64,000 nucleotides of DNA from Oscillospiraceae bacterium (GCA_015064555.1 SVRZ01000006.1:13043-77042); one strand, 5' to 3'; positions 28,290 through 45,672 are shown, numbered from the stretch's first letter. The notes: generated by a model not told the origin, from the sequence alone. Numbers and translations: made by a program.

Positions 28290-28415
28290 GTATATCCACC
28301 TCTCTGTAAGTATAATTCGCTTGTGCTATATTCATAATACGCACAGAAAGGATAGAGTGTGAAAAATATTCGCCGTTTATTCGAATACGTTTGCATATTT
28401 TTGTTATAATGCAAT

Positions 28416-28460
28416 AAAAGACGGTAGCTCAAGTTCAAAAAACTTGAGCTACCGTCTTTT
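28416..28460 (-). terminator. Intrinsic terminator of the nagA-tcdA-GDPD operon
   Basis: Perfect 20-bp inverted repeat AAAAGACGGTAGCTCAAGTT/AACTTGAGCTACCGTCTTTT. Confidence 0.85.
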
Positions 28461-28510
28461 TGCCTTTTCTCGCAAAAAAATCTGTAATTCTTACCTGAAG
28501 CGGATATAAA

Positions 28511-29350
28511 TTATTTTTTGCGGTAGAGAAGGCCGTTTTTATCCAGATGATCGATGAGCATACCCGTCCAGTCGGTTTGTATAAAGTCAAATCCGCGCCT
28601 TGCCAGCCAGCTCCATCCGCGATCGGGATCGCCCCAGAGAGCCGTGTCATCCGAATGACCTGCGGTGAGCTGTGCTTTCGAGTTGTAAATTATGGCATTC
28701 GCCCAGACGAGCTTTCCGTCGCGGTGCATCATTCCGATGAATTTCTCGCTTGCGACCTCGTCATCCTCTGTATCAAAGATAACCTCGGCACCGATATAAT
28801 TTATCCCGGATGCCATAAGCTCCTTATGCTTCGGATGAGTCTTGTTCACTATCGGCATATAGGGGACGTCGGGCGCGAGCTCGCGGAGCACCGAGAGCAC
28901 CTTTTCGGTGGGAGTGGATTTGACAAGCACGTTATCGGTTATGCCGTGTCGCTTTATGGAGCGATATATTTCGGTAGGGTGATCCCAGAATTTATCAACG
29001 TTTATAAGGCACCTTCTGCCGAACTGCTCAAAGACCTCGTCGAGGGTGCAGAGCCCGTAAGGTGTCGGAGTGCGGTCGCAGTTAAGGTATCGGAGCTGCT
29101 TTACCTCCTCTGCGGTCATTTCGGGGATGCGTACATCCTGACCGAGGTGAGGCTTTTCCATGCCGGGATGGAATATGAACAATTCTCCGTCGCGGCTCAT
29201 GCTGACGTCGATCTCTATCATATCCGCTCCCTGTGTCAGAGCGGCATTGTATGCCGCGATAGTGTTGCAGGGGATATTACCTCCCGCCACGCCTCTGTGC
29301 GCTACGATTATTATCTTTTCCTTCGCTTTTTCAAATATAGGTGATGCCAT
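28511..29350 (-). CDS. Glycerophosphodiester phosphodiesterase family protein
   Basis: VAHRG, GADMIEIDV..S.DG...IFH and G.D.IQTD motifs; GGAGG upstream of the ATG at 29350. Confidence 0.85.
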   Translation of the reverse strand: MASPIFEKAKEKIIIVAHRGVAGGNIPCNTIAAYNAALTQGADMIEIDVSMSRDGELFIFHPGMEKPHLGQDVRIPEMTAEEVKQLRYLNCDRTPTPYGLCTLDEVFEQFGRRCLINVDKFWDHPTEIYRSIKRHGITDNVLVKSTPTEKVLSVLRELAPDVPYMPIVNKTHPKHKELMASGINYIGAEVIFDTEDDEVASEKFIGMMHRDGKLVWANAIIYNSKAQLTAGHSDDTALWGDPDRGWSWLARRGFDFIQTDWTGMLIDHLDKNGLLYRKK

Positions 29351-29375
29351 GATCCTATCCTCCGAGATTTGAATT

Positions 29376-30104
29376 TCAGTTTTCGCTCTTGGGTACATAT
29401 TCTCTTGTGAGATCCTTTATGACCTCACCCGCTATTATAAGCCCTGCAACCGAGGGCACGAATGATATGCTTGCGGGTGGGATGCGTCCGTCCTCGGGGG
29501 CTTCCGTTACTATCGGGCGGCGCGCCTTCTCGCGTGAGTAGACTACCTTCAGGTGCTTGATCCCGCGCTTTTTCAGCTCGGTACGCATTACCCGTGCTAA
29601 GGGACAAACCGATGTTTCATAGATATCAGCCACCTCAAAGGCGGTGGGATCAAGCTTGTTTCCTGCTCCCATAGCCGCAATCAGCGGAACTTTCGCGCTT
29701 TGACACAGCTCGGCGAGAGCGAGCTTGCCCTTGACAAAATCTATAGCATCAATGACGTAAGAATAATCGGAGAAATTAAATTCCTTTGCGCTTGAATCAT
29801 CGAAGAAAATGGGGTACTTTTTTACACGGCACAGGGGATTTATTGAAAGTATGCGCTCTTCTGCCGCATCGGTCTTAAGCATTCCCACAGTCTTCTCTGT
29901 TGCGATTATCTGCCTGTTGATGTTGGATATCGAAACTCTGTCCGCATCGATCAGGTCTACGGCGCCGACACCGGCTCTTACAAGCGCCTCAACGGCATAT
30001 CCGCCGACTCCGCCCACACCGAAAACGGCAACCCTCGCTTTCTTTAGAGCATTGACGGCATCCTCGCCGATAAGCATAGCCGTTCTTGAATTCTTTTCTT
30101 CCAT
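29376..30104 (-). CDS. tcdA: tRNA threonylcarbamoyladenosine dehydratase (ThiF family)
   Basis: GVGGVG, SNINRQ, MGAGNKLDP and CPLARVMR motifs. Confidence 0.88.
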   Translation of the reverse strand: MEEKNSRTAMLIGEDAVNALKKARVAVFGVGGVGGYAVEALVRAGVGAVDLIDADRVSISNINRQIIATEKTVGMLKTDAAEERILSINPLCRVKKYPIFFDDSSAKEFNFSDYSYVIDAIDFVKGKLALAELCQSAKVPLIAAMGAGNKLDPTAFEVADIYETSVCPLARVMRTELKKRGIKHLKVVYSREKARRPIVTEAPEDGRIPPASISFVPSVAGLIIAGEVIKDLTREYVPKSEN

Positions 30105-30135
30105 AATATTTCCTTTTTGGTGATTTTGTAAACGA

Positions 30136-31203
30136 TTATTTGTAAAATCTGCCGTTTTTCATAACCTTCACAAGATTATTATCGTTATCGACCGCGATGA
30201 GGTCTGCATCGTATCCGACTTCTATTTTACCTTTATTGAGTCCCATCATACGTGCGGGGACCTCGCTTGCCATCCTGAATGCCGAATCGGCGGATATACC
30301 GTGTGCGGCGAGATATCTTACGCAATCCAAGAGGGTAGAGGTTGAGCCTGCCAATCTGCCGTCCTCGCACCTGGCAACGCCCCCCTTGACGAATACAGCC
30401 TCGCCTCCGAGCGTGTACTCTCCGTCCTCCATACCAGTAGCACGCATCGAGTCGCTTATCAGCACTATACGCTCTTCTCCGAGGATACGTATTATCATTC
30501 GGAGCACAGATTCGTGGATATGATTTCCGTCTGCTATTATCTGCGCGTAAATGCCATCCGTGTCAAATGCGGCGGCTATGGGACCGGGCATACGGTGGTG
30601 AATACCCGGCATCGCATTGAACGTGTGAGTCAGGCATCTGACGCCTGCGCGGAAGGCACCTCTTGCGGTGTCGTAATCTGCATCCGAGTGACCGAGGCAG
30701 ATGAGGGCAGGGCATTCCTCGATGAAACGGCGGCTTCCGGGAAGCTCGGGGGCTATAGTCACGAGCTTCACACTGTTAAGCTCGCGTATTTTTGAATAAT
30801 CGGGCTTGAATATATGTTTTTCGCTCTGAGCTCCCTTGTGCTTGGGATTTATGAAGGGGCCCTCCATATGAAATCCCGGGATACTTGCCCCGTTTTCAAA
30901 ATCGGTCTTACGAGTAACCGCACGAGTTATATCGTCGAAGCTCATGGTCATAGTGGTGGGGTACCAGGTAGTCGTTCCGTTGCTGAGCTGAAACTCCGCC
31001 ATCTCCCGAAGATGATCCTCGGCATCCATCGTGTCGTAGCCTATGCATCCGTGACTGTGAACGTCCACAAGACCGGGGTATACCCTCATACCGCAAAGAT
31101 CGGTTCCGTCCTCGTCGGTTTTCCCTATGAAGGCTATTTTTCCTTCTTCTATTCCTATATCGCATATACTGCCGTAGACTGCGGCATTCTTCAAGTATTC
31201 CAT
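30136..31203 (-). CDS. nagA: N-acetylglucosamine-6-phosphate deacetylase
   Basis: PGLVDVHSHG, HMEGPF, GHS, THTFNAM, DG.H and LAGS motifs. Confidence 0.93.
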   Translation of the reverse strand: MEYLKNAAVYGSICDIGIEEGKIAFIGKTDEDGTDLCGMRVYPGLVDVHSHGCIGYDTMDAEDHLREMAEFQLSNGTTTWYPTTMTMSFDDITRAVTRKTDFENGASIPGFHMEGPFINPKHKGAQSEKHIFKPDYSKIRELNSVKLVTIAPELPGSRRFIEECPALICLGHSDADYDTARGAFRAGVRCLTHTFNAMPGIHHRMPGPIAAAFDTDGIYAQIIADGNHIHESVLRMIIRILGEERIVLISDSMRATGMEDGEYTLGGEAVFVKGGVARCEDGRLAGSTSTLLDCVRYLAAHGISADSAFRMASEVPARMMGLNKGKIEVGYDADLIAVDNDNNLVKVMKNGRFYK

Positions 31204-31344
31204 TTTTATTCTCCTGGCGATTGTTTTTTGTTGATGTCAACGATATTTTATCACTTTGATGCGACAATGTCAATAAATCGGGTTGATTTATTTATTCCGA
31301 TGTGATAATATATATTCATAAATGTCAATTGGAGGATCTGCGGA

Positions 31345-32889
31345 ATGCTTTCAAGAGTATTGAGCGCCGGGGTTATCGGTATAAACGGCTTTGAGATAAC
31401 CGTCGAGTGCTGCAGCTGGAACAGGCTGCCTAAATTTGAGCTGGTAGGATTACCGGATGCTGCCGTCAAGGAGGCGAAAAACCGTGTTCAGAGCGCGTGC
31501 GAGAACAGCGGAATAAAATTCCCATCTCTTGATATAATGATAAATCTCGCTCCCGCGGACCTCAAAAAAGAGGGAACTGCACTCGATCTTGCGATAATAT
31601 GCTCAATTTTGCAGAGTGACGGGATCCTTCCATCCACCTGCGATTTTTCGGATAAATACCTTGTTGGAGAGCTCTCGCTTTCAGGCGAGCTCCGCGCTGT
31701 CCGCGGTATCCTTCCCATGACTGTTTGTGCCAGAGATATGGGAAGGCGCGAGATATACGTGCCGAGGGAAAATGCAGGCGAGGCAGCTGTTGTGGACGGT
31801 ATAGCCGTCTATGCTGTGGACGATTTGCGTCAGCTCATAGATCACTTTAAGGGGATATCGAGGCTGACTCCCGAAAATCCCGAATCCTCCTGCTTTGATT
31901 TCACCAAGCGCTCGGTCTGCGGAGATTTCTCCGAGGTGCGCGGACAGTATAAGGCGAAGCGCGCTCTTGAGATAGCGGCGGCGGGCGGACATAACGTTCT
32001 TATGATAGGACCTCCCGGTGCGGGAAAATCAATGCTCGCCAAGAGGCTACCCTCCATACTGCCCGATATGACGCTTTCCGAGGCGATAGAAACGACCAAG
32101 ATCCATTCGGTAACAGGAACGCTTACCAAGCATCTTATAACAGAAAGACCGTTCAGATCTCCGCACCATACGGTAACGGCAGTGGGCTTTACGGGCGGAG
32201 GCTCGAATCCGCGCCCCGGCGAGATATCCCTCGCTCATAACGGAATACTTTTCCTTGACGAGCTGCCCGAGTTTCCAAAATCGGTTACCGAGGCTATGCG
32301 TCAGCCACTGGAGGACGGTAAGGTGACCGTCACCCGTGCCGCGGCAAAGATAACCTATCCGTCAAACTTTATGCTGGTATGCGCGATGAATCCCTGCAAG
32401 TGCGGATACTTCGGCTCGTCGGACAAGGTCTGCACCTGCTCTCCTGCCGCGAGAAAGCAGTATCTCGACCGTATAAGCGGTCCGCTTCTTGACAGAATAG
32501 ATATCGAAATAGAGCTGCCCGCCGTTTCATACGATGAAATATCGGGAAAGACTCAGGAGGGCGAGCCCTCGGAAAAGATACGGGAGCGTGTCAACTTTGC
32601 GCGCAGATTTGCCGCAAAAAGACTTGAAGCCATCGGTGCTGACAGCGGTATTCTGAACGGTAGCCTTACGGGAAGCATCTTCAGAAGGTGCTGTACCCCG
32701 AATAAGGATGGCGAGGATCTTATGCGCCAGGCGTTTGAATCGCTCGGTCTTTCCGCGAGAGGACATGACCGTGTGCTGAGAGTCGCAAGGACTATAGCCG
32801 ATCTCGAGGGCTCGGCTGAGATAAATGCCGATCATATTGCAGAGGCTATAATGTATCGGTCGCTGGACCGCAAATACTGGAGACGTTGA
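31345..32889 (+). CDS. comM: ComM/YifB Mg-chelatase-like AAA+ ATPase
   Basis: VGLPD.AVKE, NLAPAD..K.G, GPPGAGKS, PFRSPHH, FLDELPEF and RVARTIADL motifs. Confidence 0.93.
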   Translation: MLSRVLSAGVIGINGFEITVECCSWNRLPKFELVGLPDAAVKEAKNRVQSACENSGIKFPSLDIMINLAPADLKKEGTALDLAIICSILQSDGILPSTCDFSDKYLVGELSLSGELRAVRGILPMTVCARDMGRREIYVPRENAGEAAVVDGIAVYAVDDLRQLIDHFKGISRLTPENPESSCFDFTKRSVCGDFSEVRGQYKAKRALEIAAAGGHNVLMIGPPGAGKSMLAKRLPSILPDMTLSEAIETTKIHSVTGTLTKHLITERPFRSPHHTVTAVGFTGGGSNPRPGEISLAHNGILFLDELPEFPKSVTEAMRQPLEDGKVTVTRAAAKITYPSNFMLVCAMNPCKCGYFGSSDKVCTCSPAARKQYLDRISGPLLDRIDIEIELPAVSYDEISGKTQEGEPSEKIRERVNFARRFAAKRLEAIGADSGILNGSLTGSIFRRCCTPNKDGEDLMRQAFESLGLSARGHDRVLRVARTIADLEGSAEINADHIAEAIMYRSLDRKYWRR

Positions 32890-32983
32890 CACAGATACGC
32901 ATATCGTCCCCAAAAAGCAGGCATATCCCAAAACCGGTGAATCAATTGATTGAAAACTTTTAAAAACCGATTTATTTCCGGTT

Positions 32984-33035
32984 AAAATGCGAGGATGTAA
33001 CGGACATTTCGGCTCCGATGCATCCTCGTATTTTT
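32984..33035 (+). terminator. Probable terminator after comM
   Basis: AAAATGCGAGGATGTA...TGCATCCTCGTATTTT. Confidence 0.65.
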
Positions 33036-33140
33036 CATTAAAGCGTCTTTTTTCATCATTTACCGTCCCGGGAATGTATTTTTGCTTTGTGCTAAAAGTA
33101 GAAAATTATAGACAAAATACACAAAATTACAAAAAGTATA

Positions 33141-33169
33141 TTGCTTACATATTTTAATAATGTTATAAT
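33141..33169 (+). promoter_or_regulatory. Sigma-A promoter of the large secreted-protein operon
   Basis: TTGCTT-17-TATAAT with TG extension; AAGGAGG RBS before 33212. Confidence 0.7.
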
Positions 33170-33211
33170 AGGCTAGTCAAATTAATTTTGAGAATTTTCT
33201 AAGGAGGATTT

Positions 33212-36200
33212 ATGAAAAACACCAAAAGAATTTTGATTTTCATCGGTGCGGTAGTTTTACTGGCTTCTATGGTATTTGCTACAGTATCCGCAGCTGCTAC
33301 CGACTCGGTAATCGCCGGCGCCGATACTTCCTACGATGAGTACCTTAATATGAAGCTCATCGTATCGCACGGCTTTGAGCAGTTGGCGAACGGCCACATT
33401 TATTACCTTGGTAACATGAAGAAGTCGCTCGGCGTTGCAAATGCCGGCGAATCATTTGATTCAACCAAGGTCGGAGTGGTCACTCCTGTCAATAACTTCT
33501 GGCAGGGTGTCTCAAGCGTTTACAACAGCGCATTTTCCGGTCAGTTCTATATGATGGACTACAACTGGAATAACCCCGAGGGTCACACTAATGATGACGG
33601 AAGCAAAAGACCGGGTGACCTTTACATTCAGCCTTGGTTCGGTGTTCTTGACGACGTTGAGAAAACGCCTCAGAACGGTTTCGTTTCCGAGTTTGATATC
33701 GCCTTCTTCAGCGAGGTCGTATACGTTATGACCGAGAAGCTCGATGACGAGGGTAACGTCGTTATGGTCGACAAGCGCGATGAGAACGGCAGGATCATCT
33801 ACGAGATCGAAGTTGATGAGTACGGTGACGTTATCTATGAGCTTGCAAAGGATGATCAGGGATTCTATATTCAGGTTCCCGAGACCGATTCCAATGGTAA
33901 TATCATCTACGAAAAGGACGAGAACGGCGACGATATCGAGGACGAGAACGGCAACAAGACTCCCGTTTACCTCTATAAGAAGGATGCCGACGGAAATTAC
34001 ATCCGTGACGAGAGGGGAAAGCTTATCCCTGTGTATGAGCCTCTTAAGGATTCTCAGGGAAATCCCATACCCAAGTACGTATGCGAGCTTGATGAAGAGG
34101 GCAATCCTAAGTACGAGATGGACGGCGAAGCGGTAAAGACCTATTCAAATGGCAGCCCCATTCCCGTAAAGGTTTCCGTCAAGGTTCCCGAGATGACCTA
34201 TGCTATGGAGGACCTTCTTGTTCCCCTTACAGATGAAAACGGTAAGATAGTCTTCAATGAAGACGGCAGTATGAAGTATCTGCCCGAATATGAGGAGATC
34301 AAGGATACAGAAGGCAACGTAGTAAAGGTTGAGAAGAAGGATGAGAACGGAAACGTTATCTACGTAAAGCAGCTTGATGCAAACGGCGAGCCTATCAAGG
34401 TAAGAAAGGTGGATCGCGAAAAATCCGGCGAGTTCAAGGGCCTCAATAAGAGCTTTGGTATCGGTATGTATAACACTCATACATACAATGACGGTAAGAT
34501 CGATCTTATGCACTTCTCTACCAATGCGGCAACCAGAACGGTTACTCTGCATGCAGGCGGCAAAGAGGTCCATACCTTCCGTGCGGATGAATGGGAGCAC
34601 ATTTCGGTTTCCTATGATGCCGAGACCATGCTTACCACCGTATACGTAGGCAAGGACGAGAGAAAGCCCGTTTATGAGATAAAGGCTATTGACCAGGCGG
34701 AAAACTATAACATGGCATACGTTAACGTATACCCCCTTCAGTTCCGTATGGGATGCCAGAGTACTACCGGTCGCGTAGGTATCGACAATATGCTTGCATA
34801 TCAGGGTACCACCATCCACGACCCCGAGCATCTTACCAAGATGACCGATGATGAGAAGTTCATCTACAGTAGCATTGACACTCTCGGTAACAATGAGATG
34901 TCTGCTACCAACCGTCTTCAGGCATATAACGAGATAGAGAGAAACATTATCTCCAACTACTATGATATGGCTGCGGGTAAGAACCTCTTCCCCCGTGAGA
35001 ATCCTAACTATGCGGATCTCGTAAAGAGTATCGAAATCTTCCTTGAATACTATAATAACAGCAAGCCCGAGGGTGAAAGCCGCGGTGTGTATGATCTTCT
35101 TATCGATGCGGTTAAGACGGAAAACGTTCTTGCATTCCAGGGACTTGTAAATAACGTCGGATCGGTAGAAAGGACCTTCGCTAACTCCTCTGAGATAATC
35201 ACTAAGATCAATCTTGCCGACAACTTTGTAACCAAGTCGGGAGAGTATATCGATTTCACATCCGCTGTATATCTTCAGGCAAATGCCAGCCTTATGCAGT
35301 ATAAGGATAACTACAACAGAGATATGGCATCTCAGCAGTTCATAACTTATATGAACGTATTCAAGTCGAGCTATGAGGGCGGTGCATCCGCTGCAAGACT
35401 TCAGGCGCACTACGACGTTGCGGCGGCTATCCGCGATTCGATCTCCAATCCCGCCGACCTTAAGGGTTCCGATAAAACGAATCTCAGTAATGCTATCAAC
35501 AGATTTGACGGCGGTATCGGCGTTGTCGGTGCGGCAGAGCTTATCCGTCTTAAGACCTTTGAGCACAACAGCTCTCGCTTCGTTGGTATGATGTCGCTCC
35601 TTTCCTCCACCTCCAACGGTGACTGGGCAAACAGCGATGCATCCGCACGTAAGCTCTGGGAGCTTGCTCTTGATATCATAAACGAGAATATGTATGATCC
35701 CGAGTATGAGGGCTTCAGAGCGGCTAAGTCTGTATTTGATTCGGCAAATGCATACTTCTGGGATGTTCTCCAGAAGGAGCATCTTGACGTTATCAGAGGT
35801 AAGCTTGATGCATTCAACGATCCCTCCGCATCCTACGTGTACAAAGCAGGTATATGCCTCTTCGTTGAAAATTACATCAATGATAATATCAAGACCATTG
35901 ACGTAGAGAATAAAGAAATAGCGGCAGAGATAGCAAAGAATCAGAGCTACAAGGCTCAGCTTGATACTCTCAAGGACGACTATAAGAACCTTTTGCTCCA
36001 GAATGCTACCAAGTTCATCAATACGATGAAGTATGCATCCGAGTTTAACACCTATGCAGATCTTAAGCCCCTTTACGACGAAGCTACAGAGTATTACTAT
36101 GCTATGGACCTCGTAGGAGAGGGAATGGATGATTACGTAGTTAAGTATGAGCAGATCCGCGAATATATAATCGCTACCGAGCGTGCATGCGAGCTCTTCC

Positions 36201-36472
36201 TCGTAGCATCCGGAGCGCTTGAAAACGAGACTGATGACGATAAGATCTACGGACTTCTCGTTCAGTGCTATTCCTGCTATGACGATCTTGATGCGACCTA
36301 TAGCGGAATAAAGGAAGCAAAGACTGTTTACAATGCCGCTTGCGATGAGTATATCTCTACCTCCAATGCGATCAACGCTGAGATAGAGGATACCGTAAAG
36401 CTTGTAGGTGCAGTGCGCGGAAACTGGGATATAGACAGTATCGTTGCATTCTTCGTAAACCTTTTTAACTAA
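33212..36472 (+). CDS. Large secreted hypothetical protein (1086 aa): possible LamG-like domain with D-x-x-G repeat insertion and helical repeats
   Basis: Sec signal peptide; SEFDIAFF...EWEHISVSYD...GIDNMLAY beta-sandwich-like motifs; about 17 DxxG turns; long helical C-terminal half; the CDS is secure, the domain calls are tentative. Confidence 0.75.
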   Translation: MKNTKRILIFIGAVVLLASMVFATVSAAATDSVIAGADTSYDEYLNMKLIVSHGFEQLANGHIYYLGNMKKSLGVANAGESFDSTKVGVVTPVNNFWQGVSSVYNSAFSGQFYMMDYNWNNPEGHTNDDGSKRPGDLYIQPWFGVLDDVEKTPQNGFVSEFDIAFFSEVVYVMTEKLDDEGNVVMVDKRDENGRIIYEIEVDEYGDVIYELAKDDQGFYIQVPETDSNGNIIYEKDENGDDIEDENGNKTPVYLYKKDADGNYIRDERGKLIPVYEPLKDSQGNPIPKYVCELDEEGNPKYEMDGEAVKTYSNGSPIPVKVSVKVPEMTYAMEDLLVPLTDENGKIVFNEDGSMKYLPEYEEIKDTEGNVVKVEKKDENGNVIYVKQLDANGEPIKVRKVDREKSGEFKGLNKSFGIGMYNTHTYNDGKIDLMHFSTNAATRTVTLHAGGKEVHTFRADEWEHISVSYDAETMLTTVYVGKDERKPVYEIKAIDQAENYNMAYVNVYPLQFRMGCQSTTGRVGIDNMLAYQGTTIHDPEHLTKMTDDEKFIYSSIDTLGNNEMSATNRLQAYNEIERNIISNYYDMAAGKNLFPRENPNYADLVKSIEIFLEYYNNSKPEGESRGVYDLLIDAVKTENVLAFQGLVNNVGSVERTFANSSEIITKINLADNFVTKSGEYIDFTSAVYLQANASLMQYKDNYNRDMASQQFITYMNVFKSSYEGGASAARLQAHYDVAAAIRDSISNPADLKGSDKTNLSNAINRFDGGIGVVGAAELIRLKTFEHNSSRFVGMMSLLSSTSNGDWANSDASARKLWELALDIINENMYDPEYEGFRAAKSVFDSANAYFWDVLQKEHLDVIRGKLDAFNDPSASYVYKAGICLFVENYINDNIKTIDVENKEIAAEIAKNQSYKAQLDTLKDDYKNLLLQNATKFINTMKYASEFNTYADLKPLYDEATEYYYAMDLVGEGMDDYVVKYEQIREYIIATERACELFLVASGALENETDDDKIYGLLVQCYSCYDDLDATYSGIKEAKTVYNAACDEYISTSNAINAEIEDTVKLVGAVRGNWDIDSIVAFFVNLFN
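33731..34435 (+). repeat. Intragenic degenerate D-x-x-G beta-turn repeats
   Basis: DDEG, DENG, DEYG, DDQG, DSNG, DENG, DENG, DADG, DERG, DSQG, DEEG, DENG, NEDG, DTEG, DENG, DANG. Confidence 0.85.
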
Positions 36473-36490
36473 AGAATAAGGAGTAAAAGA

Positions 36491-39400
36491 ATGAAAAATA
36501 AATTTTCAAGAATCGTATCTTTGGTGCTGATTCTCGCATTCCTTGTTTCATCTCTCGCGGTATTCGTGTATGCGGATAATGGGACTGCGGCATCCGGTTC
36601 AAAGGCGGCCGACACCGATGATATAGTTCTTCTTGTAAACAGAACTTATCATGAGGGCTGGAATTACGCAAACGGATTCACCACCAAGGCAAACGGAAAT
36701 AACTTCCTTGTTGAGTATGAGGAAACCGATAATTACGATTATAACTACTACCTGAGAGTCTCCGCTTCCGGAGACTCCGCGGGATACATGATAATGGATT
36801 ACGGTGCAGACAAGGCTGTATACGGTCATTCTATCGTTGAGTTCGATATCAAGACCGACGACCTTTCGAAGATCGGAACCATTATGGAGTTCACAAGCCA
36901 GGTTGGAAGCAAGGTTCATACCTACCCCGTTTTAAGCGTGCTTGACGGTAAGCTCGGAACTCTTAACGACAATCTTAACAGCAACGGTGTCGTTCAGTAC
37001 AATATTTCTTCGAACCCCGTTGATATTGAGGATACCTGGCATAAGGTTGCTGCAGTCTTCTACGTTAACCAGAGAGTATGTCCTGCCTGCGGCACCATCC
37101 ATAGCATTACCGGCGCTATGCTTGAGTCCGATATAATCTGCTGTAAGGGCAATGATGCGGATGGCAATCCCTTGGGCGGTGTTGCACTCGGTCAGATGGA
37201 TGCTCTTATGACCGTTCGCGTTTACTTCGGTAATAGCGAGACCTTCGATTATGACAATGCTGTAGATGCAGAGACCGTCGAGGTCCTCGATCCCACCAAG
37301 ACCTACTACAACGAGGTTCGTCTCGATGACAGAACCGAGCTCAACCTTGTAAGAATAGGTCTCCCCGGCGGTACCAACCAGACCGGTCACGGATATCTTC
37401 TTGATAACGTAAAGTTCTACCACGGCTCCGAAAAGCCTGTTGACGTTTCAAAGCTCGGCTACGGTAAGAGAGTTAATGAGGCGGCTGCAAAGACCGAAGA
37501 GATACTCATTCCCGGCGCAGAAAAGACCGTGCTTCAGTACATAAACAGCGGTCTTGTTATGAAGGTTGGCGTTGATAAGTGCCTCAATGCGGGTACCAAG
37601 AGCAACATATTCTCGAATGAGAACGGTGTGGCATACGGCGCACCTGTAAAGATCGACGGTACCGTTTACGTACCCCTTCAGACTGTACTTGATTGGATAG
37701 GCTATCCCATGTTTGAGCATGAAGATGGCAGGTCCTACGATATCTCCACCGAAAACGGATCTACCTTTATTACTATAGGAAGAACTACCGCGACAGCGGA
37801 CGGAGTGGTTATCGAGCTTTCCGCAGCCCCCGGCATTGCAACCGATAAGGTTACCGGAGAGGAATATGTAGTTGTTGCAATAGACGATATATCCAAGCTC
37901 TTCAACGGTTATTTCGTAACCTACGACGATATGGGACTTATCGTAGTTTCTACCGGTGAGAATCTTCTCGACAGAGAGACCGATCTTGATGTTATGCTTG
38001 ACATAATGAGAGATCTCGTCTTCGATTACAAGACCGGTGAAGACTTCTATGAAACTGTAAAGGCAAATACCAATAATTTCACTCACCCCTATCTTGTGGC
38101 AGATCAGACTCAGTTTGATCTTCTTAACGAGGCTTATATGTCCGAGACTGCTGATGCTAATCTCAAGGGCTATATTGCTTCGATGCTCGAGGATGCTGAA
38201 GAGGTATACGCTCAGTATGTAGCTGAGGACGTTACCACCGGTAAGTATCTCAAGGGCGCTATCGTCAATCCTCACGTTCTTACCAAGGAGCAGGAGGATG
38301 CAGGCGTTAAGGGTAACAACGGTTATTCGACAAAGACCGGACGTCTTGACGAGGCTGTTGAGCACAATGAAAACATAAGAACGCTCGCGCTTGCATATCA
38401 GATCACTCGCGAGGATAGATACGCAAGACTTGCATATGAAATGGCTCTTTCGATGGGTGAATGGACTCACTGGGGTCCCGCACACTTCGTAAACTGTGCC
38501 GATGCTACTTCCGCATACGCGCTCGCGTATGACTGGCTCTACAACATCTGGAAGGATCTCGGCTATAACGTAGAGTTGATCGAAGCAGAACTCTTCAGCA
38601 ACGGTGTACATATGGGATATCTTGCATCGGGTAACGGTGCATTCGAGACCAAGTACTCCCGTAACCAGGGCGATGATTTCGATTATGCATCCAAGACCAA
38701 TAGCTGGAACGTTGCGGGTACCTCCGGTATGGCAATAGCTTCTCTTGCTCTTCTCGGCTCGGAGTACATCTTCAATATCAACAATCCCTCCGATGATGAA
38801 GAAAATTCAATCACCGTTTATACTCAGTACGTAACCGAGGCAAAGTGGCTTCTTGAGAACAATCTCAAGTCGCTCACTAAGATCGGACTTGATATGTACG
38901 CACCTGACGGCTCTTACTTCGATTCTCCCAGCGCCTGGAGCTATGCTACCGAAAAGCTTGTTCTTCTTTCCTGGGCACTCAGCACGTCGGTAGGTAACGA
39001 TCTCGGTATAATAAATACCTGGGGCATCGACAAGACCTTCTACTTCGCACTTCAGACCGAATATGCTTCCGCAATATTCGAAAAGGTTCCCTCCGGTCCC
39101 TACAACGAGATCAACCATCTCGTAGGCTATGAGTACAAGTATTGGATGTTCAACGACAGTATCGGTGACGTTCTTGATACAAGCATGCTCTTCTATGCCG
39201 CATCGGCACTTGAGGATTACGACCTTGCCGCTATCCGTATCAAGCAGGCGGCTACCAAGAAGATCAGCCTTTGGGACGTTCTCGGCTACAACGTTGAATA
39301 TGCAGATCTCGATCCCGATTCGGTTGAGCTTGCTCTTGATTATGAATTTGAAAACTGCGATGGTGTTATAAGCCGTTCCGATTGGTCCGGCGACGGTATC

Positions 39401-40570
39401 TTCGTAGGTATCATGGGTAACCAGAACGGTGGCGAAACAGGTCACATTGACGCAGGCAACTTCGTATATGCAAACAAGGGTATTCTTTGGTTCGGCGACT
39501 TCGGCTCTGAGGATCCCGACGTATACGGATACAACTCCGAGGAGCACCGTTACGGATACTACAGAGTAACCGCAGAGGGCTCTAACGTAGTTATCGTAAC
39601 CTCCAACACGTTGGCTATGCCTAACGGTCAGTCTATTACAGGTAGCGGAACTATCACCGATTACTATACCTCCGAGTACGGTATGTATACTATTGTAGAC
39701 AATACCAACGCATATTCCGGTAATATCATCAGAGCACTCCGCGGAGTTCTCTTTACCAACGACCGTAACACCGTTGTTCTTCAGGATGAGATATCTTATC
39801 TCCGTCCTCAGTCCTACGTCTGGGTTGCGAACACTCCTCTTTCTTCGGCATTCATAAACGTTTCCGATGAGGATGGTGGAAAGACCGCTACTCTTACTCA
39901 GGAGATAGACGGCGTTTACTACAAGCTTCGTCTCAGCATAGTATCTTCATCCGGCAACCTTTCGTTCGAGGTCGTTGATGCTTACAAGTTCCTTATGAAC
40001 AGCACTCACGGAAGCGGATATGCTACCACTCAGGGAATGAACCCCGAGCTTGACAGAAGCGGATATCAGCGTCTTATCATCCGTTGCAACGATTCGACTC
40101 AGTTCAACTGCGCTGTTGTTATGGAGCTTCTCACCTCCGAGACTCTTGACGCAGAGGTTCAGTATGAGTACACCGAGATAGTTGACTGGAATGAGGATAC
40201 CGTTACCAAGACCTTCGTTCCTACCGTTGTCAATACCGACAGAATCGGTAACTCGGATATCACCGATATCCAGAACTACGGTGCAAAAATGCGTCAGCTT
40301 CTTGCTAACAAGACGATTGATGAAGGTTTAAGCTATGCATTCTATTCTCAGTTTAACGATTTCTACCGTTCTATGGTTCTTGTAGCGGCTGCGGTTTGTA
40401 CCTTCAAGCCCTCGGGAAAGGTTGACGGTACTGACGCTATACGTGAGGTAAGAGAGGCATATTATAATTATCTTGATGATCTGCAGCTGTACAATAATTT
40501 CAGAAATGAAATTAATTCTTACATGACAGAGTTCAATGATATGAGCATATACCTTTGCGGATATAACTGA
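36491..40570 (+). CDS. Large secreted protein (1359 aa) with copper amine oxidase N-terminal (stalk)-like domain and heparinase II/III-like polysaccharide lyase fold
   Basis: Signal peptide; APVKIDGTVYVPL stalk motif; HPYL, LALAYQIT, W.P.HF...ALAYDWLY, YAPDG and GHIDAGNF motifs. Confidence 0.78.
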   Translation: MKNKFSRIVSLVLILAFLVSSLAVFVYADNGTAASGSKAADTDDIVLLVNRTYHEGWNYANGFTTKANGNNFLVEYEETDNYDYNYYLRVSASGDSAGYMIMDYGADKAVYGHSIVEFDIKTDDLSKIGTIMEFTSQVGSKVHTYPVLSVLDGKLGTLNDNLNSNGVVQYNISSNPVDIEDTWHKVAAVFYVNQRVCPACGTIHSITGAMLESDIICCKGNDADGNPLGGVALGQMDALMTVRVYFGNSETFDYDNAVDAETVEVLDPTKTYYNEVRLDDRTELNLVRIGLPGGTNQTGHGYLLDNVKFYHGSEKPVDVSKLGYGKRVNEAAAKTEEILIPGAEKTVLQYINSGLVMKVGVDKCLNAGTKSNIFSNENGVAYGAPVKIDGTVYVPLQTVLDWIGYPMFEHEDGRSYDISTENGSTFITIGRTTATADGVVIELSAAPGIATDKVTGEEYVVVAIDDISKLFNGYFVTYDDMGLIVVSTGENLLDRETDLDVMLDIMRDLVFDYKTGEDFYETVKANTNNFTHPYLVADQTQFDLLNEAYMSETADANLKGYIASMLEDAEEVYAQYVAEDVTTGKYLKGAIVNPHVLTKEQEDAGVKGNNGYSTKTGRLDEAVEHNENIRTLALAYQITREDRYARLAYEMALSMGEWTHWGPAHFVNCADATSAYALAYDWLYNIWKDLGYNVELIEAELFSNGVHMGYLASGNGAFETKYSRNQGDDFDYASKTNSWNVAGTSGMAIASLALLGSEYIFNINNPSDDEENSITVYTQYVTEAKWLLENNLKSLTKIGLDMYAPDGSYFDSPSAWSYATEKLVLLSWALSTSVGNDLGIINTWGIDKTFYFALQTEYASAIFEKVPSGPYNEINHLVGYEYKYWMFNDSIGDVLDTSMLFYAASALEDYDLAAIRIKQAATKKISLWDVLGYNVEYADLDPDSVELALDYEFENCDGVISRSDWSGDGIFVGIMGNQNGGETGHIDAGNFVYANKGILWFGDFGSEDPDVYGYNSEEHRYGYYRVTAEGSNVVIVTSNTLAMPNGQSITGSGTITDYYTSEYGMYTIVDNTNAYSGNIIRALRGVLFTNDRNTVVLQDEISYLRPQSYVWVANTPLSSAFINVSDEDGGKTATLTQEIDGVYYKLRLSIVSSSGNLSFEVVDAYKFLMNSTHGSGYATTQGMNPELDRSGYQRLIIRCNDSTQFNCAVVMELLTSETLDAEVQYEYTEIVDWNEDTVTKTFVPTVVNTDRIGNSDITDIQNYGAKMRQLLANKTIDEGLSYAFYSQFNDFYRSMVLVAAAVCTFKPSGKVDGTDAIREVREAYYNYLDDLQLYNNFRNEINSYMTEFNDMSIYLCGYN

Positions 40571-40579
40571 TTCGCTTAA

Positions 40580-40634
40580 ATCAAACAAGCTACCGGCTCG
40601 AGCTTCAAAGGCTCGGGCCGGTAGCTTGTTTGAT
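40580..40634 (+). terminator. Long hairpin/terminator after the two-gene operon
   Basis: 24-bp near-perfect inverted repeat. Confidence 0.75.
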
Positions 40635-40787
40635 GTGGCTGTAGGCGGCTTGTTAAGGTGTGAGTATTTTTTTATCCAATAAGCTATATATGATATATTG
40701 AAGGGTATAGCTTTTTATTTTTGTTAAGTAATTACCTGAACATTTATATAGAACCCTTTATTAAACGATCCATTTATTGCAGAAGCA

Positions 40788-40836
40788 AAAAGAGTCAGCC
40801 TGAAGTGCGAAAAATACACTTCAGGCTGACTCTTTT
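40788..40836 (-). terminator. Terminator of kdgK
   Basis: Perfect 20-bp inverted repeat AAAAGAGTCAGCCTGAAGTG/CACTTCAGGCTGACTCTTTT. Confidence 0.85.
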
Positions 40837-40871
40837 AGGGAGAGCCCCCTGTTTTTATTTGATTTTTGTGA

Positions 40872-41897
40872 TCAGCGCTGGATTCTTCCGGTGCCGTTTC
40901 CGCCTGCGAGAGCCTTTACCTCATCAACGGAAACCATATTGAAGTCACCCTCGATGGTGTGCTTCAGGCAGGAAGCCGCAACTGCGAATTCAACAGCATC
41001 CTGAGTGGAATATCCGTTGAGGCAGGAATAGATAAGTCCGCCGCCGAAGCTATCGCCGCCGCCAACACGGTCAACGATATGCATATGATAGGACTTGGAG
41101 AAGCAGTACTCGCCGCTTGCTACATCGTAAAGAAGAGCTGCCCAGTCATTATCGTTTGCGCTGATGGAGGATCTGAGGGTTATAGCAACCTTCTCGAATC
41201 CGAACTTCTCAGCGAGCTGACGCGCAACCGACTTGTAGCCCTCGTGATTGAGCTTACCGCCTGCGATATCGGTGTTCTCAGCATCGATACCGAATACGTC
41301 GTGTGCATCCTCCTCGTTGGAGATGCAAACGTCAACGTACTTGCAAAGCTCGGTCATAGTCTTGCATGCTTCCTCTCTGGACCAGAGCTTCTTACGGAAG
41401 TTGAGGTCACAGGAGATCTTAACGCCTTTTGCCTTAGCAGCCTTACAAGCATCAAGGCAGATGCCTGCAACCGTGGGATTAAGAGCGGGAGTGATTCCGG
41501 TGAAGTGGAACCAATCTGCTCCGTCAAATATCTTCTCCCAATCGAAATCGGAGGGGCTTGCCATAGAGATAGCAGAATATGCTCTGTCGTAGATAACCTT
41601 GGAGGGACGCTGAGAAGCACCCTTTTCGTTATAGTAGATACCAACTCTGTCGCCGCCTCTTACGATCATAGAGGTGTCAACGCCGAACTTGCGCAGAGAA
41701 TTAACTGCTGCCTGTCCGATCTCGTGCTTGGGGAGCTTGGTTACAAACGCGGAATCGATTCCGTAATTTGCAAGAGAAACCGATACGTTTGCTTCGCCTC
41801 CTCCGTAAACCGCACCGAATTTCTCTGCCTGTGCAAAGCGGAGATATCCCTCAGGCGCAAGTCTGAGCATAATTTCGCCAAATGTTACAACTTTCAT
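40872..41897 (-). CDS. kdgK: 2-keto-3-deoxygluconate kinase (PfkB family)
   Basis: FGEIMLRL, GGGEANV, YDR..SA, HFTGITPAL and DRVGGGDSF motifs. Confidence 0.88.
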   Translation of the reverse strand: MKVVTFGEIMLRLAPEGYLRFAQAEKFGAVYGGGEANVSVSLANYGIDSAFVTKLPKHEIGQAAVNSLRKFGVDTSMIVRGGDRVGIYYNEKGASQRPSKVIYDRAYSAISMASPSDFDWEKIFDGADWFHFTGITPALNPTVAGICLDACKAAKAKGVKISCDLNFRKKLWSREEACKTMTELCKYVDVCISNEEDAHDVFGIDAENTDIAGGKLNHEGYKSVARQLAEKFGFEKVAITLRSSISANDNDWAALLYDVASGEYCFSKSYHMHIVDRVGGGDSFGGGLIYSCLNGYSTQDAVEFAVAASCLKHTIEGDFNMVSVDEVKALAGGNGTGRIQR

Positions 41898-41962
41898 TTT
41901 TATTTCCTTTCGAATATAATTATTTCAAAATGTTTTGCATATAGTTAAGTATCGATCGGGAT

Positions 41963-42205
41963 TTAAAGTGCAGACAGCTCCTCGATACAAGCGCGGCATA
42001 CCTTTTTATCCTTGTGATCCACAAGCGCATCGGTGCTTCCGCAGAAATGACAGCCTGTGTAGTAGCGCGAGAGCATGATCCGATTACCCTCCACAGATAT
42101 TTCTATTGCGGAGCCGACGGGCATATCAAGCTTTTTACGAAGCTCCTTGGGTATTACAAGACGGCCAAGCTCATCAATATTGCGAACTATTCCTGTTGCT
42201 TTCAT
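41963..42205 (-). CDS. abrB: AbrB family transition-state regulator
   Basis: MKATGIVRNIDELGRLVIPKELR; C-terminal CxxC...CxxC. Confidence 0.9.
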   Translation of the reverse strand: MKATGIVRNIDELGRLVIPKELRKKLDMPVGSAIEISVEGNRIMLSRYYTGCHFCGSTDALVDHKDKKVCRACIEELSAL

Positions 42206-42278
42206 AAAACCTCCTTATAGGGCGTAATGTTAAGCGGCAGTGATGTGACCTTTGCGAGGTCATTCGCTCCCAAATACG

Positions 42279-42307
42279 ATTTTATCATAAAATACCTTGA
42301 ATGTCAA
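42279..42307 (-). promoter_or_regulatory. Sigma-A promoter of abrB
   Basis: TTGACA-17-TAAAAT with TG extension on the - strand. Confidence 0.7.
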
Positions 42308-42428
42308 GGTTAAGATAATAACTCATAAGAAGAATTTTTGTATATTTTGGAAAATAAAACAGTAAAAAAGACGTATTTTGCACAAACTCGCAAAGCTTTG
42401 GGCAAAAGTATTCATCAGGAGGAAAAAT

Positions 42429-43322
42429 ATGAGTGTTTTACTGGCAAAAAACGGTGCACGTGAGGCAATTCTTTGTCGCCTTTCCGAGCTTATATCGCCC
42501 TTGGTATATGCCGAGATCGAAAGGATCGGAGCATCCAGAGCCGATTTTCCGATCGGACTCACCGAGCTGCGCCTCAGGCGCTTCGGCAGGAGCAGTATGG
42601 TTCTTTCGGGGGAGAATATCCTTCTTTCATACCGGCCCGGCGAGAAGGATATGGAGAGACTTTTGGATAAATTGACCGGAGGCTCGCTCTACGCTCATTC
42701 GTCGCAGCTGAAGGACGGGTTCATCTCGGTCGGTGACGGGATACGCGTTGGCGTTTATGGGGACAGCGAGCTTGTGAGCGCATCCGATGTCAGCGGTGTA
42801 GTAATACGTCTGCCGCTCGGTCGATGCAGCTGTATCGAAGGAATTTTCAATGAGTGGCAGCGCCATTGTAAGCGCGGAATGCTGATATATTCTTTGCCCG
42901 GAGGCGGTAAAACAACTGCCTTGCGCGCGCTTGCGGGGAAGCTTGGCGGTGAATGCGGAATGCGTGTCGCGGTGATAGACGAGAGACGCGAGTTCATAAG
43001 GGAGGAGTATATCGATGCCACAGTGGACATAGTATGCGGCTCCTCTAAGGCAAGAGGTATAGAGATGGCGATACGAACACTCTCTCCCGAGGTTCTGATA
43101 GTGGACGAGATAGGAGCGGAAGAGGAATGCCGGGCTTTGCTCGGTGTGGGAAGAGGAGGCGTGCCGATCATCGCCACCTCGCACGCGGGCGGTATAGACG
43201 AGCTTCTTGAAAAAAGATCGGTAGCTCCGCTTATCCGTGCAGGGTATTTTGATAGGTTCGTAGGTCTTTATCGCGATAGAGGCGGATTCCGATTCTGCTC
43301 ATCGGGGCTTGGTGAGGGCTGA
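42429..43322 (+). CDS. spoIIIAA: Stage III sporulation ATPase SpoIIIAA
   Basis: ELRLR, LYAH..QL..GFI...G.RVGV.G, PGGGKTT.LR, IDER.E and IRTLSPE..IVDEIG motifs. Confidence 0.88.
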   Translation: MSVLLAKNGAREAILCRLSELISPLVYAEIERIGASRADFPIGLTELRLRRFGRSSMVLSGENILLSYRPGEKDMERLLDKLTGGSLYAHSSQLKDGFISVGDGIRVGVYGDSELVSASDVSGVVIRLPLGRCSCIEGIFNEWQRHCKRGMLIYSLPGGGKTTALRALAGKLGGECGMRVAVIDERREFIREEYIDATVDIVCGSSKARGIEMAIRTLSPEVLIVDEIGAEEECRALLGVGRGGVPIIATSHAGGIDELLEKRSVAPLIRAGYFDRFVGLYRDRGGFRFCSSGLGEG

Positions 43323-43804
43323 TGCGCTTGCTCTTGTTCATCTTGATAGCATCGGGCTTGGTCGCTTATTTTTACCTCGAGGTGCAAGACGTTCGGCGAA
43401 GAGCGCTGGAATACGAGGACGTCGGCAGACTTATTTCTGCGATCAGGCGCGGTATCGCAGGGGGCAGAGAGCTCTGCGATCTTATCGGCGGTGCTGAGGT
43501 GCGGTCTGAGGGCGGCAAACGTTTGAAAAAGGCTATAGAGAAAAGCAGATACGAAAACGGTTGGCGCGAGGGTGTGTCTTTTTGCGGCATCGGCCTCGAT
43601 GAAGAGGATATGAGAAGACTCTGTGTCTATTTTTCGGATTTCGGCAAGGGAACAGACGGAGCAGAGCTTCGCGGTGCGGCAGAGCTTCAGGAGCATTTTT
43701 GCAAAAAGGAAAAGCAGATCGCCGCATCCGCAGAGAGCACCGTAAGGAGCGGTGCGGTAATGCTCGCGGCGGCAGTGCTCGGACTTTTAATACTTATATA
43801 CTAG
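43322..43804 (+). CDS. spoIIIAB: Stage III sporulation protein AB
   Basis: Position, size, N- and C-terminal TM segments, F..FG..D motif. Confidence 0.7.
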   Translation: MRLLLFILIASGLVAYFYLEVQDVRRRALEYEDVGRLISAIRRGIAGGRELCDLIGGAEVRSEGGKRLKKAIEKSRYENGWREGVSFCGIGLDEEDMRRLCVYFSDFGKGTDGAELRGAAELQEHFCKKEKQIAASAESTVRSGAVMLAAAVLGLLILIY

Positions 43805-43864
43805 CGTGCTATGCCGAATGAGGTGTAACAGACCTTTACAATAAAGATAAAGTTAGGAAGAAAA

Positions 43865-44059
43865 ATGGATTTCGATTTTGTTATAAAGGCGGCGGGCATA
43901 GGAATGCTTGTGGCTGTCACGTGTCAGATATTATCGAGAATAGGTCGTGAGGATCAGTCATCCCTTGTTTCGCTTGCGGGAATAGTCGCCCTTCTGCTCA
44001 TGCTGATAAATGAGATAGCATCACTCGTTGAGGCCGTGCGCGGTATTTTTGGTATTTGA
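43865..44059 (+). CDS. spoIIIAC: Stage III sporulation protein AC
   Basis: MD...IKAAGIG.LVAV..QIL...GRE.Q..LV.LAG; 64 aa. Confidence 0.9.
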   Translation: MDFDFVIKAAGIGMLVAVTCQILSRIGREDQSSLVSLAGIVALLLMLINEIASLVEAVRGIFGI

Positions 44060-44060
44060 T

Positions 44061-44492
44061 ATGCCGTTGCCCTTTAATTTTTGTCTTGAGATATACACGG
44101 GTGAGGGGCAAAGCTTTAATGGAACTCTGCTTATTCTCATCCTCTCTGCCGTGCTCGCAGTAATAATGAAGGGCCTCGGCTTTCGCGGAGCGAGCATTTT
44201 TACAGCTCTTATCTATCTCGTTCTTGTGAGAAATGCCGTGGCTATGTTATCGGAGATATCGGGTGTTATGAGGCTCTTCGCCTCCGAAAGCGGAGCGGAA
44301 AAATATATCACGGCGGCGGCAAGAGTCATAGGCGTGGGCTATCTTGGATATGCCGCCTCCGAGGTCTGCCGTGAGCTTGGAGAGAACGGAATATCGGGAG
44401 CGATACTCACCGCCACGAGAATGGAGATGATCCTCTCTTCGTTGCCCTTCATAAAAGAGATCTTCAATATAGCTGTGGATCTTATCGGGTAG
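44061..44492 (+). CDS. spoIIIAD: Stage III sporulation protein AD (start uncertain)
   Basis: YI....RVIGVGYL....SEVCRELGE..I motif; position. Confidence 0.75.
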   Translation: MPLPFNFCLEIYTGEGQSFNGTLLILILSAVLAVIMKGLGFRGASIFTALIYLVLVRNAVAMLSEISGVMRLFASESGAEKYITAAARVIGVGYLGYAASEVCRELGENGISGAILTATRMEMILSSLPFIKEIFNIAVDLIG

Positions 44493-44501
44493 GGGGCTGT
44501 T

Positions 44502-45671: not shown

Positions 45672-45672
45672 A

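Follow-up and report, generated by a model that had tools for sequence, protein, structure and literature searches.

What purpose could be served in a bacterium of the Oscillospiraceae by a giant, apparently exported protein that is built on a polysaccharide lyase, seems to have lost the catalytic residues of that lyase, and is encoded beside a second giant protein? The question is raised by a 64,000-nucleotide (nt) stretch of Oscillospiraceae bacterium (GCA_015064555.1, SVRZ01000006.1:13043-77042), hereafter the window, in which a two-gene unit encodes P0001 (gene 1) and P0002 (gene 2); coordinates are 1-based along the window strand. The evidence is best accommodated by an abundant, non-catalytic, fast-evolving surface coat resembling a surface layer (S-layer), a reading that we favour tentatively, with rather less than even confidence; protein abundance, surface location, wall tether, partner association and coat function are what we infer from the genes. 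According to this proposal, two very abundant secreted proteins would jointly form a non-enzymatic outer coat, either a true S-layer or a looser layer. Gene 2 would be a former polysaccharide lyase retained as a rigid scaffold, with a concanavalin A (ConA)-like head, a Cu_amine_oxidN1 module that may serve as its wall tether and a toroid-plus-sheet core from which the catalytic triad is missing; gene 1 would add a second ConA-like head on a variable repeat arm, together with a long helical domain whose C-terminal tail is conserved. A repurposed lyase serving as surface structure was one of two roles put forward by an earlier, sequence-only reading of this DNA, and it is kept here as the most likely one.

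The argument begins with residues 619-1130 of gene 2, which in phmmer searches matched the solved lyases of polysaccharide lyase family 35 (PL35), namely 8khw (E 4.2e-23), 8khv (7.3e-22) and 9o3q (3.2e-19). Judged by these matches, the core is homologous to the PL35 (alpha/alpha)6 toroid with its antiparallel beta-sheet; a DUF4962 match stayed below the Pfam cut-off (19.9 vs 28.7 bits). The available text on the PL35 enzyme GAGase II (PMC12088678) gives Tyr246 and His401 as the acid/base pair, Asn192 as the neutraliser and His403, Asp405, Asp421 and His457 as Mn2+ ligands, and states that changing Tyr246, His401 or Asn192 singly to alanine abolishes activity. The numbering of the PDB chain is offset by 22 from that of the paper, as deduced from the NNW and EGYSYW motifs in the alignment. 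At the positions of Asn192, Tyr246 and His401 gene 2 carries Ser738, Ala815 and Thr983, and threonine in place of histidine at 983 is seen in the alignments to both 8khv and 8khw. The altered catalytic motifs that had been noticed in a lyase fold can thus be specified as a PL35-like core in which Tyr, His and Asn appear to be replaced by Ala, Thr and Ser. His985 and Asp987 of gene 2 align with the Mn ligands His403 and Asp405, a mapping that covers two of the four ligand positions, and the His403 column is Gln in 59 of the 60 rows of the clade to which gene 2 belongs.

Among the aligned rows of the lyase family, 33 of 132 hold the full Asn/Tyr/His triad. A FastTree phylogeny of the lyase core, built from 129 rows of at least 1100 amino acids (aa) with the three catalytic columns omitted and rooted at the midpoint, comprises 32 triad-intact rows and requires at least five changes of triad state, the starred branches forcing at least four. 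Gene 2 lies on a long branch (0.6) inside a 60-row clade (support 94; 98 for an inner 55-row set) in which no row is triad-intact: His is present in 6 rows, Tyr in 30, Asn in 4 and Tyr together with His in 5, as against 44, 56 and 36 rows with His, Tyr and Asn, respectively, among the remaining 69. Replacements within the clade vary by row, with G, T, N, Y or S in the His column and K, N, R, A or F in the Tyr column, and structural residues are invariant.

The same genome offers a useful comparison in two heparinase II/III-like proteins of 561-616 aa (C19:26410-28389, L068, and C11:14233-15927, L069), which have no signal-like N-terminus and retain intact NNW, YW and HNHND motifs. They belong to the same broad superfamily and also match PL35 chains, their nearest solved structures being 8R73, 8R75 and 8R6Z (closest 8R73/8R75, E 1.6e-95 and 1.7e-43). 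To judge from their sequences they are probably cytoplasmic oligosaccharide lyases, and the motifs are therefore retained where catalysis is needed; these enzymes look working, whereas gene 2 does not. Selection on gene 2 seems to keep the fold and not the chemistry, leaving it apparently non-catalytic, and it is on this account that we read gene 2 as a lyase-derived scaffold and the pair as a putative coat.

An improbable explanation, given these residues, is that gene 2 would still be an active secreted lyase relying on non-canonical residues, with gene 1 as an accessory and the products feeding KduI, KduD and KdgK. The significant PL35 homology over about 510 residues, His985 and Asp987 at two Mn-ligand positions, same-genus relatives of the pair that retain the full triad, the uronate pathway of the genome, the high-expression codon usage of a neighbouring kinase, and the lack of any PL1 or PL8 match in the genome (82% complete) would all sit well with it. 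Yet any one of three alanine changes inactivates GAGase II, according to the available text of PMC12088678, and gene 2 is without all three residues; the replacing residues, besides, differ between clade rows, and such variety does not have the look of a new conserved mechanism.

The second line of evidence comes from the expression signals (Table 1). The stop codon of gene 1 (TAA, 36470-36472) and the ATG of gene 2 (36491) are 18 nt apart, and the unit is preceded by a sigma-70-type promoter with TTGCTT at 33141-33146, TG at 33161-33162 and TATAAT at 33164-33169. A generic promoter scan, which returned 14 promoter-like sites overall against 13.6 in shuffles, did not list this promoter because its -35 matches at 3 of 6 positions only. 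Its credibility comes from conservation across relatives: when the 135 nt 5' of gene 1 were aligned for the window and 12 related loci, TGnTATAAT stood in 12 of the 13 regions, the -35 being TTGAAA in the relatives, and for the thirteenth region (L014) the chosen stretch stopped short of the promoter. The non-coding element at 33086-33127 has 19 invariant columns over 13 loci, some of which encode proteins of no more than 20-36% identity; its conservation exceeds that of the downstream proteins, and a regulator site, an UP element or a second promoter are candidate roles for it. At the other end of the unit, none of 200 shuffles was as stable as the closing hairpin, which is predicted to act as a terminator, a 3' stabiliser or both, and an Rfam scan of 32700-41000 gave only chance hairpin matches to microRNA models, far under thresholds.

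Codon usage points in the same direction. On the first axis (16.8% of variance) of a principal component analysis of relative synonymous codon usage in the 1342 long open reading frames (ORFs) of the genome, gene 2 takes rank 23 and gene 1 rank 32. Nineteen ORFs at this extreme end were scanned, of which 18 carry Pfam names and 1 has no family, and they include PPDK, GAPDH, EF-Tu, [FeFe] hydrogenase, ribosomal protein S3 and PNPase as well as trigger factor, EF-Ts, DnaK, GroEL, aldolase and PGK. The sequence-only reading had claimed a two-gene unit with a strong promoter, a codon usage that by eye looked like that of highly expressed genes and one hairpin at the end; the ORFs 18 nt apart, the conserved extended -10, the two codon ranks and the 26-bp stem at -52.1 kcal/mol bear it out on each count. 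Elsewhere in the same genome, a 647-aa ORF without significant Pfam family (G000:C25:42246-44192, L025) has a codon bias among the top nine of 1342, and because of this bias it is probably another abundant unknown protein.

Expression also bears on whether the two might be spore-surface proteins of the coat or exosporium, which is very improbable. Such a role would be in keeping with the spoIIIA genes and an AbrB/SpoVT-type gene lying 1.4-2 kb downstream; the promoter, however, has the sigma-70 character of a housekeeping promoter and an extended -10, the codon usage fits vegetative high-expression genes, the Sec-type signal segments suggest export from the vegetative cell, and the genes around the unit belong to ordinary conserved chromosome. 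Coat proteins made in the mother cell mostly have no signal peptide.

Table 1. Positions of the unit, its signals, the domains of its products and the adjoining kinase gene within the window
Feature	Position	Strand	Description
Conserved non-coding element	33086..33127	+	TTTGTGCTAAAAGTAGAAAATTATAGACAAAATACACAAAAT; 42 nt, just 5' of the -35
Sigma-70-type promoter	33141..33169	+	-35 TTGCTT, 17-nt spacer, extended -10 TGTTATAAT
Gene 1 ribosome-binding site	33201..33208	+	AAGGAGGA; 3 nt before ATG; conserved in related loci L003-L011
Gene 1 (P0001)	33212..36472	+	ORF, 1086 aa
Gene 1 signal-like segment	aa 1-28	+	N-terminal helix in model
Gene 1 ConA-like sandwich	about aa 45-175 + 411-538	+	split by insertion
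Gene 1 hairpin-repeat insertion	33737..34441 (aa 176-410)	+	about 15 units of ~12 residues, D-x-x-G-N-x-I-Y-E type
Gene 1 all-helical C-terminal domain	34844..36469 (aa 545-1086, ~540 aa)	+	family-defining module
Gene 2 ribosome-binding site	36478..36483	+	AAGGAG, within the 18-nt spacer
Gene 2 (P0002)	36491..40570	+	ORF, 1359 aa
Gene 2 ConA-like sandwich	36626..37435 (aa 46-315)	+	from model and structure search
Gene 2 Cu_amine_oxidN1 domain	37637..37849 (aa 383-453)	+	Pfam PF07833
Gene 2 PL35-like lyase core	38345..39880 (aa 619-1130)	+	sequence match to solved PL35 chains
Gene 2 C-terminal helical module	40268..40567 (about aa 1260-1359)	+	helices predicted from sequence
Closing hairpin	40580..40634	+	26-bp stem, -52.1 kcal/mol, z -9.97
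KDG-kinase-like PfkB gene	40872..41897	-	convergent neighbour

Both products are likely exported. Strongly hydrophobic 19-residue windows occur in each protein at the N-terminus only and are followed by a small-residue cleavage-like site, from which we infer secretion. The mature proteins, of about 119 kDa (gene 1) and 148 kDa (gene 2), are acidic, with isoelectric points of 4.49 and 4.32; the acidity proposed earlier is borne out, and the Sec-type signals remain likely for both. The earlier remark that no classical anchor could be seen also holds: Pfam gave no SLH, LPXTG or dockerin domain in either protein, and neither signal segment contains a Cys. The known S-layer anchoring modules SLH and CW_binding_2 are absent from both proteins and had no match anywhere in the 82% complete genome, and with classical coat anchors thus unseen, the PF07833 domain of gene 2 becomes the candidate tether. 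This domain scores 25.1 bits against a gathering cut-off of 24.2 (29.6 bits in the six-frame search), and the genome holds one other PF07833 protein. The available part of PMC4137172 describes PF07833 as a domain often met in the cell-wall hydrolases of a Gram-positive surfaceome, and the portion available of a 2026 preprint (10.64898/2026.09.23.753664) lists it among predicted wall-binding modules; on these sources the domain may be a cell-wall tether, and nothing more is claimed for it.

Structural models describe the heads of the two proteins. The N-terminal 345 residues of gene 2 were modelled at a predicted local distance difference test (pLDDT) score of 87.2, and on this model the N-terminal domain is a ConA-like fold, matching 5mqs_A (Z 14.8, root-mean-square deviation (rmsd) 2.9, 176 aligned) and 2w68_A (Z 13.8). 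The AlphaFold model of gene 1, made with 26 homologues, has a mean pLDDT of 73.7, and its sandwich likewise is, as modelled, a concanavalin A-like lectin/glucanase fold, the best structural match being 8hls_A (Z 14.1, rmsd 3.4, 197 aligned); behind it come further lectin modules of sialidases, legume lectins, calreticulin and numerous other chains. The top matches of the two sandwiches are largely the same chains, and weak Laminin_G_3 matches appear in relatives. With Z scores of 14.1 and 14.8, the proposal that both proteins start with a ConA/LamG-like sandwich carrying an insertion has stood up well. The insertion in the gene 2 sandwich bears a C-x-x-C ... C-C cluster at aa 197-218 (37079-37144; C197, C200, C217, C218); the family consensus also has Cys-x-x-Cys at this place, and the cluster is a possible metal or disulfide site.

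Gene 1 gave no match in Pfam, NCBIfam or a sequence search of solved structures. Its insertion, modelled as strand hairpins at low confidence (pLDDT mostly 30-57), has 15 DxxG sites between aa 178 and 400, about 12 residues apart; insertion length and unit number differ widely among homologues, some of which carry a second repeat block. The helical domain that follows (aa 545-1086) was modelled at block pLDDT values of about 80-90. Foldseek gave only low-probability matches of this domain to long helical proteins, the wide VIA-align search of gene 1 was filled by sandwich matches with none convincing for the helical part, and Protein Atlas yielded no usable match for it, the named matches to whole gene 1 all lying below 0.9 and pointing to ConA-like modules only. 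The domain was never searched on its own, and its fold is for that reason not called new.

The ends of the gene 1 family are well marked. The N-terminus follows M-[KR]-x(1-3)-[KR], commonly MKNTKK or MKNLKK, in 148 of 167 proteins of at least 700 aa, and gene 2 also begins MKNK. At the other end, the best matched stretch reaches the C-terminus or its vicinity in most of the 150 gene 1 family matches listed. The last 45 residues (36335-36469 in the window) contain a near-invariant Tyr (160/167), Asn (155/167) and Arg (160/166), after which comes a hydrophobic tail of about 18 residues with an end pattern of the K-K/N-L/I-F/I type. No NCBIfam C-terminal sorting model matched the tail, which may be a new sorting, anchoring or docking signal. 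Similar terminal helices in the two proteins had also been suggested. BLASTP of gene 1 against gene 2 gave nothing significant, and in hhalign of the two families only the C-termini match (gene 1 aa 1007-1070 with gene 2 aa 1286-1357; 64 columns, E 9.7e-4); a weak profile likeness between the C-termini thus stands, at a probability of only 22%. For the heteromeric complex proposed by the sequence-only reading, a prediction with aa 540-1086 of gene 1 and aa 1130-1359 of gene 2 scored 0.00, which is uninformative either way.

The third line of evidence is the combination of fixed pairing with fast divergence. A scan of one genome per species recovered 10 loci with a gene 1 relative, 9 of them full length, all from animal-gut or faecal metagenome-assembled genomes labelled Clostridia, Eubacteriales or Ruminococcus. 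A gene 2 relative lies 4-18 nt 3' of the gene 1 relative in 9/9 full-length loci, and in three genomes of the window genus this site is occupied by a pair that has diverged far more and whose spacers measure 21-75 nt. Co-occurrence had been set beforehand as a check on the pair, and in 12 of 12 related loci the two genes stand side by side (spacer 4-75 nt) at one chromosomal position; in the protein database, no fewer than 15 additional homologues of gene 1 and gene 2 agree in the length of their longest contig, which indirectly points to the same pairing. YifB is upstream in 13/13 related loci, ThiF in all 10 species-scan loci and amidohydrolase and GDPD genes in most of these 10. Each gene is single-copy in the genome: profiles of the terminal and other modules run against all genome ORFs recovered the genes themselves and one weak match (C30:60951-63317, E 3.9e-4), which has no Pfam family at E 1e-8 and a chance-level match at 0.01.

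With regard to distribution, gene 1 was found in 0 of 300 other genomes of the order (single-protein query), in 0 of 398 other genomes of the class that were scored (profile query) and in 4 of 400 other genomes of the family, all from the window's genus, where 4 of 7 sampled genomes have it; these scans are samples, and their first-look filter may miss weak matches. A profile search run exhaustively over 1.84 billion representatives gave 368 clusters (50% identity) at E <= 1e-3 and 219 at <= 1e-30. Gene 1 family proteins are 800-2600 aa long, and among 27 compared with Pfam, 22 had no family, 4 showed a weak Laminin_G_3 match immediately ahead of the helical domain and 1 a coiled-coil match at chance level; 8 compared with NCBIfam gave no credible family. 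The lyase core of gene 2 is more widespread, occurring within other large proteins in 18 of 399 other Clostridia genomes.

Identity to the window is 53-96% for flanking proteins, 28-47% for gene 2 and 21-38% for gene 1, whose product shows the lowest conservation in each locus. Averaged over 78 locus pairs, distances come to 0.25 for YifB, 0.66 for gene 1 and 0.58 for gene 2, so that the pair diverges about 2.5 times as much as its YifB flank. Both distances track those of YifB (r 0.94 for gene 1, 0.92 for gene 2), from which a fast, mostly vertical divergence can be deduced rather than cassette exchange; swapping of cassettes by recombination was considered as the main cause of divergence and ruled out on these correlations. 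The distances of gene 1 and gene 2 remain correlated after removal of YifB (partial r 0.72, a value not reached in any of 2000 permutations), in a test whose loci are related and not independent; such a correlation is expected for linked genes and compatible with co-evolution.

The flanks are of interest since the convergent neighbour had been called kdgK and taken as a link to uronate metabolism. Upstream lies a YifB-type Mg-chelatase-like ATPase; downstream, a PfkB kinase gene converges on the unit and ends in a terminator of its own, and beyond it lie an AbrB/SpoVT-like gene and the spoIIIA operon. The kinase is best matched by the model for the kinase half of a KHG/KDPG aldolase-kinase fusion, at 599 bits against a cut-off of 700, and reaches 245 bits (cut-off 440) and 132 bits (cut-off 400) with the models for 2-keto-3-deoxygluconate (KDG) and KDGal kinase. 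By these scores it is KDG-kinase-like and passes no NCBIfam equivalog cut-off. It ranks 16 of 1342 in codon usage and is 89-96% identical in two relatives. Five related loci show what follows gene 2, and the kinase adjoins the pair in two of them (L008, L015) but not in the other three (L003, L011, L013). The kinship to KDG kinases is therefore upheld, but with scores below curated cut-offs, a separate terminator and adjacency in 2/5 loci the link itself is weak. The genome further encodes two GH88-like hydrolases, KduI, a KduD-like dehydrogenase, UxaC and KDPG aldolase, and thus the organism appears to live partly on unsaturated uronates. The hydrolases, the dehydrogenase and a 540-aa KduI fusion form a cluster at C9:35800-40700 (L066:5744-10533), with UxaC elsewhere on C10 (L067:5674-7164) and the aldolase at C10:39348-39917.

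With this background, an unlikely but weighty alternative would make the pair a non-catalytic glycan-capture complex, in which the dead cleft and two ConA-like heads bind host or dietary polysaccharide for substrate holding or adherence and other enzymes do the cutting. The nearest solved folds of the sandwiches are the carbohydrate-binding modules of sialidases, lectins and lyases, the lyase fold is retained without the triad, and the genome combines unsaturated-uronate catabolism with two intact heparinase-like enzymes and places a KDG-kinase-like gene next to the pair. The cleft itself speaks otherwise. Asn191 and Asn192 of the PL35 enzyme contact the uronate carboxylate, and the corresponding columns of the gene 2 clade are mostly Asp (38/60) and Ser (47/60), which argues against canonical uronate binding; the binding of polyanionic glycans, the other role suggested for the pair by the sequence-only reading, accordingly loses ground, as far as these columns can tell. 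The lyase-site columns moreover vary within the clade, unlike a conserved binding site, the kinase accompanies the pair in two of five loci only, and the unit contains no glycan transporter or regulator.

The coat-like reading draws on the whole of this pattern. Maximal expression and export signals, large acidic products, a single copy, a fixed position and the fastest local divergence together make the signature of a major surface locus; for the abundance expected of an S-layer, the evidence consists of proxies, namely the codon ranks and the conserved promoter and ribosome-binding site. Several observations weigh against it. Three loci of the same genus (L013-L015) carry the same pair with an intact Asn/Tyr/His triad, so that the pair may have begun as an enzyme system and may serve as one to this day in some lineages. 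A full unsaturated-uronate route would fit a foraging role. An established anchor domain is absent from the pair, the wall role of PF07833 being only predicted in the sources available. Fast divergence is a sign of rapid evolution and not by itself of surface exposure. The 7 cysteines of the gene 1 protein and the 11 of the gene 2 protein are unusual for classical S-layer proteins.

A more specific version of the coat is doubtful as a whole, and would comprise a new two-component surface layer made of a lyase scaffold with repeated triad loss and a gene 1 family partner. Within the samples it would be limited to a single uncultured genus of gut Clostridia and close relatives of that genus; the C-terminal tail of gene 1 would be a new anchoring or docking signal, the lectin-like head would be carried on a variable arm, and the promoter and upstream element, better conserved than the proteins, would drive the unit.

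Comparison with known systems helps to place the pair. The PL35 glycosaminoglycan lyases (GAGase II, 8KHV; GAGase VII, 8KHW; PL35 chondroitinase, 9O3Q) share homology with aa 619-1130 of gene 2, whereas gene 2 is more than twice as long, has a ConA-like head, Cu_amine_oxidN1 and a helical tail in addition, has its triad replaced and is always paired with a gene 1 family protein. Among S-layer systems, SlpA of C. difficile is encoded at a variable locus, and SlaA and SlaB of Sulfolobus, a large lattice protein and a helical stalk protein, share one operon. The pair resembles these in its strong promoter and terminator, high-expression codons, signal segments, large acidic proteins, fast divergence at a fixed locus and two partners encoded together; it differs in having no SLH or CW_binding_2 and more cysteines, and no kinship in sequence or fold with an S-layer protein was found, no test aimed at one having been made. 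Calnexin and calreticulin, like gene 1, hold a long repeat insertion inside a ConA-like sandwich (8xvf_A, Z 10.5, rmsd 3.6, 188 aligned; 1jhn_A, Z 9.5, rmsd 3.8, 185 aligned), but the gene 1 repeats are acidic units of about 12 residues and not proline-rich, there is no sequence relation and the arm is modelled at low confidence, so that the likeness is one of layout only. Sialidase lectin-like modules (5MQS, 2W68/1W0O, 8HLS) are the best structural matches of both sandwiches, at an identity of 9-13% and with many unrelated ConA-like folds close behind in Z.

Within a known lyase superfamily, gene 2 can be described as a new variant, apparently a non-catalytic one, and the gene 1 family is covered by neither Pfam nor NCBIfam. 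A literature search found no paper on such a pair, which is not proof of absence as subscription journals lay outside the search, and none joining heparinase II/III, S-layer protein and Clostridia; among the matches listed for polysaccharide lyase pseudoenzymes, as far as their titles and abstract openings tell, none was bacterial.

If the coat-like reading is true, a carbohydrate-active enzyme fold would have become a structural or binding surface protein in widespread uncultured animal-gut Clostridia, annotations there as "heparinase II/III family protein" would not report glycosaminoglycan degradation, and predictions of gut metabolism from carbohydrate-active enzymes would be affected. The conserved helical domain and C-terminal tail of gene 1 may be a new surface-anchoring or docking module. 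Phages and host immunity commonly target abundant, fast-evolving surface proteins, which would make the pair a natural choice of marker for typing strains and for following phage-host dynamics in this clade.

Two minor observations concern the surroundings of the unit. Over 27000-46500, short contigs from four metagenome DNA runs, at 80-95% likeness, pile on YifB and the kinase and are low over the operon; contig depth cannot rank genes, and nothing is drawn from the low depth. Among the related loci, 6 of 9 (L004-L007, L009 and L010) have a contig that stops about 150-1900 nt past gene 2, which hints at something hard to assemble downstream of the pair in those six genomes.

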